Assembly (NCBI GenBank): GCA_951406725.2
Contig: OX597816.1
Coordinates: forward strand, 149,296,001 to 149,360,000
From: Octopus vulgaris
Lineage: Eukaryota
Length of the DNA: 64,000 nucleotides
Reading direction: 5' to 3'
Positions 1 to 59,000 of the stretch are shown here, one piece after another. Each line of letters opens with the position of its first letter. Position 1 is the stretch's first letter. The position numbers were made by a program.

Positions 1-3000
1 CATGACTGTGCTAATACATTCAGTCTGTAAGCTGAATCACTATAGTACATTTTGTCTAACTGACAACACCCATCTCTCTTTATGGTTGAATGATTAGCGA
101 AATATTCCATCCATGCTAGTTTAGTAATGTAAAATGAATAACAAGGACTGATAAACAGAGTTTAAGAAGTGGATTTTATAGTATCAAGAAAATAAAAGAT
201 ATATCTTTTCTTGGAGAATGTCAAACTTAGATAGCATTCATAGATGATCTGCTACCTATACTAAAGTGTGTAGAATTAAGTGAACACAATAAAATGCCTG
301 CAGTTGATTTAAACTCAAGATACATGCAGTCATATGCCAACATCATATGCACTCACCCATTTTACTACTATAAAGGAGAAAGATTTTGCTTAAATTCAAT
401 GCTCTATTAGAGACCTCTTTCTAAATCATAAATACCTGTGGAACTTATCTCCAGTTTCCACAGGTTTGATCTATATTCTTGGTTACAATGCTTACAAACT
501 AGTTTTTCCTAGAAGAGAATTAAACTATATCACAAGCCAATGAATCAGTCATCTGTTTCAAAGAATTGTTGTCTACAGTTGTGAATATACCAAATGATAT
601 CGGGTGCCCACTGAGAGCTAGGAACATAAGAACAAGTGAGAAAGGAAAACTGGACATGGCCAGTCAACATGCTACTAATAGCAGTCAGATCGTCTTCAAA
701 GTATATTCAACTGTTTTAGAAAAATACACAATATTTAAGAGGAAGATGAATAGTTAGTCATGCCTAAAATTATCTTTGATCTGCTCAGTCAGGACTGATC
801 TGTAGCCAAACAACGATTCAGTGGACCTAGCCGCTGAAAACCAAGTACCTTGACCATGAATGGTTTACATAGTGCTGGCTGTCTGGTATCATGTTGTGAG
901 AGATATCCAGTGAACACTCATTATTTTGTTGCAAAGACAATAATTCTCAGGCAAACAAAGTGTATACAGTCGTCCCCTTAAAATGATGCACAAATATAGT
1001 ATTCACTAGAGGGATACAGATAAGTAAACAATCTCTTAGCTTTAACTATCATTGATCAATGTTCAGAAAGGCAACATAAAATAATCATATATACGATCCA
1101 TCGCCTACCAAGTACATACACCAACAATACAGATATATTCTATAACTCAGTACTGAACATTTTCACATTCTATTTATCACACGGTATTGTAAACACACAG
1201 GAAAAGAACATGTGCCTGTTAATCAAAGACTACAAAAGTTCAAGCCAGTAGTTCCTTTGCTAAAATCCACATCGTCAACATTTGACGCTGTCTGTCATCA
1301 ATTATCACTCAGCGACTTCATTTCTCTAATTTTTCGAAAGAAAAGTGTCACTAACCATCATCCTGGCCAAAGACAAAAGAGTTTGTACACACGGAAAGGA
1401 GTTATAATGTTAGAATGTTGTATTAGACAATTTCTATTGAATAGCTCAACAGAAGTTCTATATTATAGCGAAAATTCTGCAAAAATGTTAATCTCGGTGG
1501 CTAAATCTATAAAATCCATGTGATAAAAAGTATAAAAACGTGGAAGGAGAGCTGACCGAATATCAAAGGAAAAGAGAATAATAGTGTGCATGTAATGAAT
1601 GAGAGAGAAAAATAAAAACTCTGAGATAGTTATACTTGTAAAAGAGTAACGGAAACAGAATGGCAACAGATCGAGTGGACAGAGTGAGATAAGATCAAAG
1701 AGGAGGGGTAAATAGCAGAGCGATCGTATTTGAAAGATATTTAGTCTCCGCTACTTCACTAACTTAGCTAACTAGAGTCTGATCCCGTGTACTAGGTACT
1801 TAGTGACTTCTGGAATTGTCATACGGAAATGAGTTAAATTGAAACAAACATTAATGGGTATAAGAAAACGGGAAAAAATCAAACAACAATAACAGCACAG
1901 AAAATTTATCTTACCTGTGGAAGGAAATGCCGCTTCCAGTCTTGTGTTTACTGCTACAACCAAACACAGCACAGAAGTTCACCATCTTTCTACAGTGTTT
2001 TCATTCAAAGCAATATGGCTGCCCACATATACATCCAAGCATGTCGGCCGCTCACTCAGTTGGTCGGTGGGTTGGTCGGCTTAGTTCACTGCTGCTGCTG
2101 ATCCTTAGGATTTTATTCTTCCTTTCATTTTTTTTGTTGTTCTTTCATTCCATCATTTCATTCTTTATTGGTTGGTTTATCTTCCATTCGTTTGGGTGTG
2201 TTCTTCAAATTCCATCGCTATTTAATTCAGATTGGTTTGCTTGCTTTCTTATGAGATAATTCCAAAACGGAAGTGTAATCGATTAATGAATTATCTTGTA
2301 TTTTAACCACTGGAATCGACAACTATCAATGAACCAGCGTAACATATTTATTGAATGGACCTGCTCGAGTTTATAAACTTTATAAATTGCTTCAAAAATT
2401 GCTGCAGAAAACATTTTGGTGAGATTCTTTCTCTCTCTCTTTTTTTTTTTTTAGGGGTTTTCAGAGAGACTAATAAAAAATGAAAACGTTCACATTATAT
2501 ACAGAAAAAGCAATTCTTGTCAATCATCAGAACCACGAACACCACATTAATTATATGTGTTCACATGAGAGCATCAGTCCATTTGCTGGCATAGTTTTTC
2601 ATTTCTCGCAGTCAAAATACAAGATAACGAAATACACTTCCATTCGATCTTTGACTACGGATCGATTTTTTAATTTTTCAGGGTCATTTCCTTTACAACG
2701 AAGAAAATTAACTTTTATTTAATTATGAATACACCTCATAACAAACACGTGTGGAGCAAAACATTAAAAAAATCTAAGCATCGAATAAGATCATACATAG
2801 TGATTCCAACGATCTTAAAATGCTGGAAGATAAAATTCAGCAAACATTTTCCAAGCACTGACATAAAAACGCAGATAGGTGGGTATTAAGCAAAAAACAT
2901 CATTACACTTTAAATCAAATAAAAAAAACATTTCTTTCTCTAGAATGTCATATTTTAGAAAAAAATATCAACAATAAATATATGATATCTATATTTTCAA

Positions 3001-56000: not shown

Positions 56001-59000
56001 GCATCGAAGGCTTTTGATCTGACCATCAGCATCAAAAAAACTGATCTTGTCCATCTGCTCATTCTTGACCATCTTCCCACTGTTGCCCCTATTGTATATG
56101 TTGATGGGAAAGCATTAAAAACTGTTCTTGGTTCCATTGTGTCCAATGATGCTAAGATGGATAAAGTAATTGTGTCCAGAATCAGGAAGGCTAATTCCAC
56201 TTTTGGTAAGCTTTATCATAGGCTTTGGAACAGCCACAACGTATTGTTGAAGGTGAAAGTCAATGTAAAGAAGTCAGAGGTCTTGACAACATTGCTTTAT
56301 GGTGCTGAATCTTATGAACTTTTCAGCTGATCCTCACATATATATATACATAGGTTTGGTGATGATAAGTGTTAATGCACAAAACTCTTGGCCTTTGAAT
56401 TAACAACCTCAGAATGCTGAACCATTCAGACGAGATGACAAAAGACTGAGATACCTAGCACTTTGCTATACTGAAGAAGACTTGTACTCTACAGCAGAAG
56501 TATTAAGGCTGCATCTCTTGGTGAAGAGGCCCAGCTTGTAAGAGTCCTGTGCTGGTTCTATGTAAAAAGCACTTGTGCCAGTGCCATGTAAAAGCACTCA
56601 GCACACACTGTAAAGTGGTTGGCATTAGGAAGGGTATTCAACCATAGAAACCAAACTAAATCAGACTGGAACCTGGTGCAGCTCTCTGGTTAAATCATCC
56701 AACCCTTGCCAGCATGGAAAACAGTCATTAAAGGATGATGATGGTGATAATGAAATATACACTCACACACACACTCACACACACACACACTCGCATGCGC
56801 GCACACACACACACACACGTCATCATCATCATTTAATGTCCATGTTCCATGCTGGCATAGGTCGAACAGTTTGACAGGATCTGATGAGTCAAGGACTGCA
56901 TCATGCTCCAGTGTCAGCTTTAGCATGGTCTCTACAGTTGCATCTTCATAAAACCAACCACTTCACTGTGTGTACTAGATGCTTCTTTTCAATGAGCACT
57001 AGTGAGGTTACCATGCAGCTTGCAAGGCTACATACCTTGAGTGAGAAGGAGGAACCTTATGTTAGGAGAATAAAGAATAGAGAGGAATAAAGTATGAGGG
57101 AAAAGGGCTGGAGCTGAACAGGTTTCTTGCTATATGATCACTCATGTTTTAGATGAGAGGTGGAAATTGGAGATAAAGTGTCAGAGTGGACCTTGATGGT
57201 ACAAGGTGGGTAGGAATGAGTGAGACAGAGGTGCTAGGAGTGAATGAGAAGAGTAAGAGAACCAGCATGGCCACAGCTCTGAGCTGAAACTACAAAGAAA
57301 ATATTTTATCAAACTCAGATGGATGGAAAACAAGTGCGACTTCAGCTGGATTTGGACTCAGGATGTACCTTAGCTCACTCCTTCCATCAAATCGACACTG
57401 CCTGAAGAGGTGAATGGTGTACCATATGTCAGGTGTTAAAGTGATCACAGAGCAATGCGAGATGAAGTGTTTTGCTTAAGAACACAACGCACCATTTGGT
57501 CTAGGTATTGAAACCATAATTTCGCAATTATGAATACAACACAATCATAAGGTCATGATTTAATAGTAATGATGATGATAATAATAATAATAATAATAAT
57601 AATGGTTTCTAATTTAAGCACAAGACGGGTGATTTTAAATGGAGAAGGGAGCTTAGCTCATACCCAGTCCAACTCAGCAGTTGACATATTTATTTTACCA
57701 ATCTTGAAAGCATGAAAGGTAAAGTTGATCTTGCTGGGACTTGAATGCAACCCGAAGAAAGCTGGAATAAATACAGTTATAAATATTCTATTTGATGTTC
57801 CAGTGATTCTATCAGTCTATCACCTTCAATGACAATAATCCTTTGGGAGGGGGATAGGTCATTACATTGGCCCTAGTGCTCAACTGGTACTTATTTTATC
57901 AACTCTGAAAGGACAAAAGCAAAGTTCACTTTGGCAGCATTTGAAGTTAGAATGTAAAGTTGGAAGAAGTGCTTTAAACATTTTGTTGCTAAGCATTTCT
58001 GATACCTGACTCAAATGTATCAACAGTATTTGACTTGTCAATAAAACAAAGCCACTTCTCAGTAGAAAACTGCATTTTTTCCATGTAATTGCTAAAATAA
58101 ATAAACTTTAACACTTACCATCATAAAGTTTTTATGTTTCTTTACATAACGGATTAATGTTGTTTTTGGAATGCTAAATATTTTAGAAGCTTTCATGTAA
58201 CCCAGCTCTCCTTTCAAGACAGCCATAATAGCTCCTTGAAGATTTTCTTTGTGCCATGAACCCTGTTGTGTTTTTCTGCAATAATTCCTCACCATCTGAA
58301 AATAATAAGCAATTGCATAATTGTTTTAACTGATAAATCATAATAGTTATTTAAAAAAGATATTTCATTTTTAAATATTTCAACTATGAATTATATTATC
58401 TAAGTGACCTGATTTTGAGTCAAGCATTGCTTACCTCTGTAACAAAAATATAAAAAATAATAATAATATGTACAAATGTACAGAACCACCATGAATGTTC
58501 TTAAAATTTTGTTACCAAAGCAACTTTGGACTAACAATGTAAAGGGATGCATGCAACAAAATATAGTAGTATTTTGTCTACCATTCTACTAATTTTATCA
58601 ATCTATTGGCCTTAATAACACTACCAACAACAACAACAATGATAATAATAATAATGGTTTCACATTTTGGCACAAGGTCAGCAAGTACTGTCTGTCAAGT
58701 CACAAGGACCTCAGACAGACAGTACTTTATGCAGTATGTTCCAAGTAGAGCTGATTTTTTGCAAATATGGAGACCTGAAAATTGAGATCACCAAGATGTG
58801 GCAGCTGTGAGAGTCAAATGTAAAGGTTGTCCTTGTTATCATCAGAACACTGAATTCAATGCTACCCAACCTGAAAAAACGTCTGGACACTTTAGAAAGT
58901 TCGATTACATCAACCCCAGTGATCATCCATCATCATCATCCAGTGTTTTAAATCCAGGTTTTGTCCCAGTTAACGGGGATGGCTGGATCTACCTCAATGC

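Follow-up and report, generated by a model that had tools for sequence, protein, structure and literature searches.

A closely spaced series of transposase-derived DNA-binding-domain exons on one strand of a genome raises the question of whether such exons belong to a single gene that exchanges its DNA-binding specificity, to several small genes, or to no gene at all. The series considered here lies in a stretch of 64,000 nucleotides from Octopus vulgaris (assembly GCA_951406725.2, contig OX597816.1, positions 149,296,001 to 149,360,000; hereafter the window, with coordinates counted from its first base), which is AT-rich (31-41% G+C) and contains no N. The first-pass annotation listed ten modules (here m1 to m10, from left to right) and interpreted them as the variable N-termini of one transcription-factor gene, with a single shared effector encoded to the left of base 1. 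The explanation that we tentatively prefer, with a confidence that stays somewhat short of even, is a different one, namely that exons for domesticated transposase DNA-binding domains form a conserved cluster of one orientation, which is distributed over several transcription units and occurs in at least two octopod lineages.

The co-oriented transposase-type DNA-binding modules are themselves a real feature of the locus. When the stop-to-stop open reading frames (ORFs) covering m1 to m10 on the minus strand were compared with Pfam under its curated gathering cut-offs, eight of the ten modules scored above them (three THAP, two BrkDBD, one FLYWCH, one CENP-B_N plus HTH_Tnp_Tc5 and one HTH_psq), which gives a positive answer to the profile check against these six families that had been proposed; the ESM Atlas returned the same families again for m9 and m7. 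All ten modules lie on the minus strand, and the description of ten co-oriented DNA-binding modules holds by Pfam for these eight, m1 being a 24-residue THAP start and m5 remaining unverified. A census of every stop-to-stop ORF of at least 45 residues on both strands detected no catalytic transposase family, DDE or other, on either strand, in agreement with the earlier statement that the modules lack a catalytic domain, and none of the modules' DNA-binding domain types on the plus strand. Among ORFs of at least 60 residues, the 129 on the plus strand matched only RVT_1 (two ORFs) and Pif1_2B (one ORF), and the 119 on the minus strand yielded eight DNA-binding ORFs, one Tc1/mariner helix-turn-helix (HTH) ORF and one PHD tail of the long interspersed element (LINE) type; ORFs of 45-59 residues (140 plus, 132 minus) gave chance-level matches only, of which the minus-strand total includes one. 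What the verified modules encode is in each case a DNA-binding domain of transposase type with no catalytic part, and of four intact pogo transposases related to m2, no more than the first 57-95 residues find a match in the window. Homology searches were run with m10, m6, m2 (against longer proteins) and m7 (against representatives), each exon singly.

The common orientation is noteworthy, yet less extreme than was first calculated. Short interspersed element (SINE)-like repeats in the window run in both orientations, so that ordinary debris here shows no strand bias, as had been noted before. The chance of the one-strand layout had been put at about 0.002, which is too small because m3/m6 and m2/m4 are paralogue pairs, and m10 and m9 may belong to one gene, all of which had been counted as independent; recalculated for 6-8 independent units, P lies between 0.03 and 0.008.

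The substitution patterns show purifying selection on the module domains. The THAP exon m3 (6408-6648; ORF 6220-6675, THAP E = 3.2e-10) encodes, from its own ATG, a complete domain with the C2CH pattern and a PTIY-type end, and closes at the donor TTG/GTAAAG (phase 1; a slash marks the splice boundary here and below); its paralogue m6 (15142-15382; ORF 15122-15406, E = 6.5e-11), also with a complete THAP domain, closes at TGG/GTAAAG (phase 1). Together with m7 these exons score 41-63 bits against a THAP cut-off of 23.9, and the C-x4-C, C-x2-H and PTIY/PTFY/PTIQ motifs are visible in them. Between m3 and m6, synonymous divergence (dS) is 0.75 and nonsynonymous divergence (dN) 0.048, a dN/dS of 0.064, a sign of constraint from this one pair of paralogues. 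Moreover, 56 of 57 residues are identical between m6 and the Argonauta hians model Ahia01_000242500. The third complete THAP exon, m7 (42952-43479; ORF 42931-43479, E = 3.7e-17, with the domain inside 42952-43401), runs from an acceptor at 43479 through an ATG at 43401, the THAP domain and a fast-evolving tail of 58 residues to the donor CTG/GTAAGT at 42951 (phase 0). Against its relative P0001 (93% overall), the THAP part is identical at 91 of 92 residues and the tail at 49 of 58 (Fisher P 9e-4), and against a farther relative (80%) the respective figures are 75 of 90 and 14 of 58. The dN/dS of m3/m6, the near-identity of the m7 domain and of m6 to their relatives, and the existence of a corresponding locus in Argonauta are the grounds on which constraint is concluded.

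That corresponding locus consists of Ahia01_000242500 (m6-like) and Ahia01_000242600, consecutively numbered models on the same 29.3-Mb contig of A. hians, the second of which begins with an m4 counterpart (62.5% identity over 80 residues) and ends with an m2 counterpart (70-77%). Because consecutive models match m6, m4 and m2, a single locus in a second octopod superfamily corresponds to the left half of the array. The suggested test of synteny in cephalopods is borne out to the extent that m6, m4 and m2 are neighbours there as well, in gene models that are differently arranged: the Argonauta models chain or split the modules in another way than in octopus, and an Ile stands at the position of the octopus start Met in the m2 counterpart. 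The A. hians models were produced by a mixed pipeline of ab initio prediction, RNA-seq and homology (PMC12682272, in part), and one of them appears, when its sequence is read by eye, to include LINE-like filler; because of both circumstances, we give these models little weight as regards splicing.

The two Brinker-type HTH exons, m2 (3579-3759; ORF 3505-3765) and its paralogue m4 (12512-12755; ORF 12456-12791; 45% identity), match BrkDBD (2e-11, 44.1 bits, and 1.1e-7, 32.1 bits, respectively; cut-off 23.4). From its own ATG at 3759, m2 leads to the donor GCG/GTAAGA at 3578 (phase 1), with a perfect second donor, CAG/GTGAGT at 3527, also in phase 1; m4 has the weak donor ACG/GTACTG (phase 1). 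Apart from its 70-77% identity to the C-terminal part of the A. hians model P0157, the N-terminus of which is 62.5% identical to m4 over 80 residues, m2 is 62-67% identical to intact pogo transposases, and this similarity to the transposon extends 11 codons upstream of the m2 ATG. One intact pogo relative, P0160, has 454 residues with a DDE_1 domain and falls into a cluster of 153 sequences. After ..CSNR, P0160 continues as G-K-K and then into HTH_Tnp_Tc5, and the equivalent bases of m2, GGTAAGAA, form the donor (window 3571-3792, minus strand); the splice site of m2 may thus have been carved from transposase coding sequence.

Re-inspection shows that most modules start at an ATG of their own and end at a predicted 5' splice site, in keeping with the ATGs and GT donors described before. 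In m2, m3 and m5 an in-frame stop lies 2-10 codons upstream (in m2 a TGA three codons 5' of the ATG, in m3 a TAA) with no AG between stop and ATG, and for this reason these three cannot be in-frame internal exons. Against a genomic mean CpG observed/expected ratio of 0.49, CpG peaks of the top 5% are found at or just upstream of m2, m3 (6901-7300), m4, m6 (14801-15600), m7 and m8 (53001-53600), and at none of m1, m5, m9 and m10; that is, at six of the ten modules as compared to about 2.4 expected (P 0.016), and the 5' flanks of these six can be described as promoter-like. For the donors, scored with an untrained weight table, 55 sites reach 7.5 on the whole minus strand, and six of these, in five of the ten modules, fall within the 1088 nucleotides between domain ends and the next stops, where 0.94 would be expected (P about 4e-4 to 5e-4). 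The donors of m1 (11.2, 99.9th percentile), m7 (10.8) and m8 (7.6) are strong, and those of m3, m4 and m6 weak (2.4-3.7). Furthermore, cross-species protein similarity ends at the predicted donors of m2 (..NRG) and m6 (..LG), and one residue before that of m4. In m7 the acceptor (score 5.4, about the 99th percentile) lies 78 nucleotides upstream of the ATG, and the intervening stretch is untranslated region (UTR), since a relative reads it in another, shifted frame. The zinc-finger exon m8 (52658-53062; ORF 52601-53083, FLYWCH 3.8e-12, 46.6 bits, cut-off 23.6) has its own ATG and the donor AAA/GTAAGT (phase 0). By contrast with m8, the FLYWCH-like label previously given to m5 (13698-13940), an ORF of 80 codons with a Cys/His pattern that ends in a stop, is not verified: there is no Pfam family at E<=10 and no significant similarity to m8, an AlphaFold2 single-sequence fold is of low confidence (predicted local distance difference test, pLDDT, 43), and the donor is weak (1.1).

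The paired exons m3 and m6 reveal how much of the surrounding DNA was duplicated or retained with them. Clear DNA similarity comprises the exon, about 240 nucleotides upstream and about 250 downstream. The promoter-like 5' flank of m3 (6649-6851) is conserved with that of m6 (15383-15618; a 594-nucleotide alignment at 70.7% identity), including a CCAAT box about 150-180 nucleotides before the ATG (CCAATCAGA at 6797, CCAATGAGA at 15564). A conserved intronic element at 6150-6213, 200-250 nucleotides past the m3 donor, pairs with 14906-14966 past the m6 donor (78% identity over 64 nucleotides) and contains a perfect TGACGTCA site together with a CCAAT box in inverted orientation. Each of the two exons is accordingly bracketed by CCAAT upstream (arms 6776-6798 and 15537-15566) and inverted CCAAT/TGACGTCA downstream; around m3 these arms form a marginal 20-base-pair inverted repeat (18/20, E 0.07), the only terminal inverted repeat pair around either exon, and around m6 both arms read CCAATGA instead of CCAATCA. 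The bracketing elements might serve as convergent promoter elements or as binding sites, or be what is left of element ends. No paralogous second exon is found 3' of m3 and m6, only the 64-nucleotide CCAAT/CRE (cAMP response element) element. The read-through frame of m6 stops six codons past the donor, its similarity to the relatives P0156 and P0174 ends at the donor, and the read-through tails of m3, m6 and the relatives' ORFs are wholly different. The first 17 intron bases after the GT (6390-6406 and 15124-15140; AAAGAAACTATCTAT and neighbours) are identical in m3 and m6 despite the exon dS of 0.75, which could reflect a splicing signal or local gene conversion; the peptide read from the stretch behind the donor GT differs in P0156 and P0174.

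Two parts of the array do not share the pattern of an exon that carries a complete domain from ATG to donor. The first is m1 (1915-1985), which consists of the first 71 coding nucleotides of a THAP domain (24 residues with C-x4-C, translated as MVNFCAVFGCSSKHKTGSGISFHR) followed by the donor CAG/GTAAGA in phase 2. The peptide is too short for Pfam (no family at E<=10) and resembles the N-termini of m3 and m6 (tblastn, E 0.004-0.01); the remainder of the domain was not found in 1-1914. Because only the first 71 nucleotides of the domain are present, m1 needs a second exon of its own. The N-terminal sequence of human THAP1 presumably resembles that of m1. Genes of the human THAP1 type share with m1 a first coding exon of 71 nucleotides that ends inside the THAP domain at the same intron position; in the case of m1 the window holds the first exon only, and the likeness is one of intron position. 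For human THAP1, the variant name c.71+9C>A indicates that intron 1 begins after c.71 (PMC4049367, in part). By appearance, m1 is a normal first exon of its own host THAP gene, which would continue to the left of base 1.

The second such part is the pair m10 and m9. The psq-type HTH exon m10 (58119-58295; ORF 58092-58325, HTH_psq 6.1e-10, 39.1 bits, cut-off 20.4) has the acceptor ttttcag/ATG and the donor ATG/GTAAGT (phase 0) and is an internal exon of an annotated gene, of which m9 (module 53864-54349; annotated exon 53861-54376 with acceptor ttag/ATAACT at 54376) is the last coding exon; the m9 ORF (53858-54376) contains both HTH_Tnp_Tc5 (2.4e-13, 50.3 bits, cut-off 22.2) and CENP-B_N (1.6e-7, 31.3 bits, cut-off 21.2). 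The annotated product, P0155, is a protein of 241 residues named "transposable element-derived 7-like 10" (Octopus vulgaris), in which residues 11-69 correspond to m10 and residues 70-241 to m9, both at 100% identity, a match that assigns the window to O. vulgaris or to something not distinguishable from it; its first 10 residues are not encoded in 58296-64000. The annotated order is thus an exon beyond base 64000, then m10, then m9, with a stop just past m9, and P0155 comprises two transposase-derived exons and a 10-residue exon, with no host domain seen. On the evidence of the annotation only, m10 and m9 are serial, not alternative, exons of a three-HTH protein; the missing CpG peaks at both exons fit this serial internal-exon picture. 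The O. vulgaris annotation pipeline combines Iso-Seq, RNA-seq, protein alignments and ab initio calls (PMC10700109, in part).

These observations do not permit a single gene of the kind that was first envisaged. The donor phase is 2 in m1, 1 in m2, m3, m4 and m6, and 0 in m7, m8, m9 and m10 (at m4 and m9 a second donor in a different phase scores about as high), and because the donors fall in three phases, a single acceptor or constant exon for all ten modules is impossible; the uniform phase expected of variable first exons is seen only inside each sub-array. The proposal of one gene with a single shared effector left of base 1 is further contradicted by the serial arrangement of m10 and m9, by the split THAP domain of m1 and by the lack of a constant exon in the window. 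What survives of the suggestion of a variable-N-terminus locus are the constrained exons with their own ATGs, CpG-rich flanks and donors. A serial multi-domain protein made of all modules was likewise considered and is ruled out for m2, m3 and m5 by the upstream stops without AG and for m7 by an upstream frame that is not conserved. As to what might lie downstream, the window yielded neither a constant exon nor an effector domain: the candidates behind good acceptors of the right phase are only junk-like or LINE-derived ORFs, and the HCF-binding motif [DE]HxY is not present on the minus strand. Poly(A) signals are uninformative, given 2.2 per kb by chance. Except for P0155 and the Argonauta models, none of the proteins found joins a module to further coding sequence, and exact look-ups of ten unspliced ORFs derived from the window gave no matching protein.

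Under our preferred explanation of a cluster spread over several transcription units, m2, m3, m4, m6, m7 and m8 would be the first coding exons of transcripts with promoters of their own, each spliced to short downstream exons, and the products would be small sequence-specific DNA-binding proteins, with a most likely role in regulation or repression at sites derived from those transposon ends to which their ancestors bound. Such regulation or repression would be the simplest role, given that the ancestors bound transposon ends and that an apparently intact relative of the m2 family, P0160, exists. The co-orientation might be due in part to tandem duplication (m3/m6, m2/m4) and in part to the circumstance that only sense insertions in a transcribed region can be exonised. 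Several points weigh against this explanation. Seven to eight unrelated one-strand insertions (P 0.008-0.016) suggest a common transcript rather than independent genes, and the phases are uniform within the sub-arrays (1,1,1,1 and 0,0,0,0), as a shared acceptor would require. None of the modules could be given a private downstream exon within the window, an absence that distant shared exons would explain equally well. The m10-m9 junction comes from an automatic annotation based on mixed evidence. Finally, searches with m2, m6 and m7 found no annotated O. vulgaris protein for any of them, and in that respect their transcription must be regarded as unproven.

Some of these points are precisely those expected if the modules were variable first exons on shared constant exons, in one or two sets, with m2, m3, m4 and m6 joined to a common phase-1 exon left of the window and m7 and m8 to another, an arrangement that we consider somewhat unlikely. 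Own ATGs, promoter-like CpG flanks, strong donors, one phase per sub-array, the co-orientation of unrelated families and the failure to find private 3' exons in the window all agree with it, as do the restriction of the m3/m6 duplication to about 700 nucleotides (exon and near flanks) with no second paralogous exon, and the identity of the 17 post-GT intron bases against the exon dS of 0.75. On the other hand, no constant exon is seen and no longer protein with a module and a shared tail was found, the donors of m3, m4 and m6 are weak, m10 and m9 are serial in the annotation, and the Argonauta models separate the m6-like from the m4/m2-like exons and have no Met in the m2 counterpart; the phase argument itself is based on few independent units, and the strong donors alone would give about 1/27. 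The more specific version, in which promoter-bearing first exons from P/THAP, pogo/Brinker and Mutator/FLYWCH at an octopod locus are joined to common downstream exons, the sets being matched in phase and at least two in number, is in our estimate unlikely; if true, the choice of promoter would select one of several unrelated captured domains and thereby the DNA specificity of a single transcription-factor gene, which would make the locus a 5' counterpart of mod(mdg4) and lola for which no description was found in the literature searched.

It is also conceivable that the window lies in the introns of a long minus-strand gene with its 5' exons to the right of base 64000, and that sense fragments of transposases were captured and exonised as alternative internal or terminal exons, in the manner of vertebrate host-transposase fusion genes or of mod(mdg4) and lola with their leading BTB. 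P0155, with its start beyond the window and its splicing to m10 and m9, the good acceptors upstream of the ATGs of m7 and m10, a phase-0 AG at the ORF starts of m6 to m9, and the report that most Octopus THAP and CENPB proteins carry BTB/POZ (PMC10027918, in part) are all in its favor; yet in-frame upstream fusion is impossible for m2, m3 and m5, the upstream frame of m7 is not conserved, neither BTB nor any other host domain occurs in the ORFs of at least 45 residues on either strand of the window, and no BTB is among the 25 family rows listed, out of 30, for the 54 THAP relatives of m7, so that we regard such capture as quite unlikely. Slightly less probable still, and in our view improbable, is a defense locus against several active superfamilies made of unspliced proteins that contain nothing more than the DNA-binding domain, comparable to the truncated KP repressor: each module does retain this domain without the catalytic part, read-through ORFs are short (for example, in m6), and the m2 family has an intact relative; but the read-through tails differ completely among m3, m6 and their relatives, enriched strong donors would be needless for unspliced products, and the few copies occupy a shared locus instead of being dispersed in elements with terminal repeats. 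Nor do autonomous copies or deletion derivatives of this kind find support in the absence of any catalytic remnant, the paucity of longer relatives of m6 and m10, and the marginal 20-base-pair repeat at m3. Finally, the array might be ordinary transposon debris or a one-strand cluster of the PIWI-interacting RNA (piRNA) type, with frames and orientation due to chance or serving RNA. Repeats abound in the window, with SINE-like copies in both orientations next to a Tc1 element, pieces of LINEs and a fragment of a Helitron, and discounting the paralogues leaves a strand statistic of no better than 0.008-0.03; against this stand the dN/dS of 0.064 and the domain-specific cross-species conservation, where a piRNA cluster would hold decayed neutral fragments, as well as the shared Argonauta locus, the clean loss of all catalytic sequence and the enrichment of donors. 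This view is largely refuted by the comparisons above, and we consider it extremely unlikely.

With respect to known systems, the array has partial parallels in several. At mod(mdg4) and lola, a constant BTB exon is combined with a variable 3' end that offers one domain family at each locus, FLYWCH being the variable domain of mod(mdg4). The presence of many DNA-binding exons at one locus, FLYWCH among them, is common to these loci and the octopus array; in the latter, however, the modules carry start codons, come from several families and fall in three phases, there is no BTB in the window's ORFs of at least 45 residues, and an in-frame acceptor upstream of each exon is lacking for m2, m3 and m5, with m7 not conserved in frame. 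The protocadherin and UGT1A clusters have paralogous variable first exons with their own promoters, one phase and one constant exon; tandem first exons with promoter-like flanks and a donor, and a duplication limited to exon and near flanks (m3/m6), are reminiscent of these, whereas the array has only two paralogue pairs, differing phases and no constant exons observed. The KP and 66-kDa repressors of the P element are truncated proteins that keep THAP and have no catalysis, KP being encoded by mobile deletion derivatives inside P-element ends. The octopus modules also keep the DNA-binding domain with catalysis gone, but are few, sit at a locus shared by two octopod lineages and end in splice donors. 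In the familiar cases of host-transposase fusion the host domain is N-terminal. The transposase DNA-binding domains without catalysis, under selection and with splice sites that join other exons, resemble such fusions and other domesticated factors, in contrast to which at least five unrelated families are co-oriented here in less than 60 kb in a layout shared with Argonauta, no host effector is seen, and several modules must be N-terminal. Transposase capture by splicing, with the resulting host-transposase fusion genes, is already in print (Cosby et al., bioRxiv 10.1101/2020.05.07.082677, in part), and so are expansions of THAP, HTH-psq, CENPB and FLYWCH in Octopus, with 25 THAP, 12 HTH-psq and 7 CENPB in O. 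bimaculoides (PMC10027918, in part).

In a literature search with little coverage of subscription journals, neither a co-oriented multi-family array nor a mollusc counterpart of mod(mdg4) or lola proved to be described, and an octopus repeat paper (PMC13282606) contains no occurrence of THAP, Tigger, FLYWCH, piRNA or kindred terms. Domesticated transposase domains as a source of transcription factors and their expansion in Octopus are thus known, and what appears to be new is a compact co-oriented array in which at least five families are combined and which a second octopod lineage has as well. Downstream exons common to the modules would make the locus a novel means of varying DNA-binding specificity inside a single gene; separate small genes would make it a natural nursery in which to study how fragments of transposases acquire promoters and splice sites. 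A multi-family repressor locus against transposons is a further possibility, and the array offers a well-defined target for existing octopus Iso-Seq data.

Other elements are interspersed with the modules. A Tc1/mariner copy at 27205-28762 on the minus strand has terminal inverted repeats of about 230 base pairs (27205-27435 versus 28543-28762, 78.7% identity) and an intact N-terminal ORF of 168 residues (27891-28523; HTH_SB plus HTH_Tnp_Tc3_2), which was absent from the earlier list of modules and stays in frame into the first catalytic-domain "SDE"; although the copy shares the strand of the array, its structure is that of an ordinary element outside the cluster. Two adjacent RVT_1 ORFs of a retroelement (54978-56327, plus strand) lie inside the annotated m10-m9 intron. 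A fragment of the Pif1 helicase 2B domain (35482-36027, plus strand; Pfam Pif1_2B) probably derives from a Helitron, and a Cys-rich PHD-like ORF (18349-18663, minus strand) is a LINE-type tail, which we take to be of the kind seen at the end of some LINE ORF2 proteins. Located 1.4-3 kb upstream of m7 is a large inverted repeat (44778-46564; arms 44807-45259 versus 45945-46378, 93.6% identity) with internal direct repeats, a CpG observed/expected ratio of 1.55-1.68 and no Pfam match in its ORFs; a TGACGTCA site is found nearby, at 44447. A unit resembling a miniature inverted-repeat transposable element (22027-22933) has inverted arms of about 250 base pairs (22027-22276 versus 22656-22933), segments of which are 80-92% identical. 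Microsatellite tracts of the TG/CA type at 29000-30900 and 34100-34950 give rise to spurious His/Thr-rich or Cys/Val-rich ORFs on both strands.

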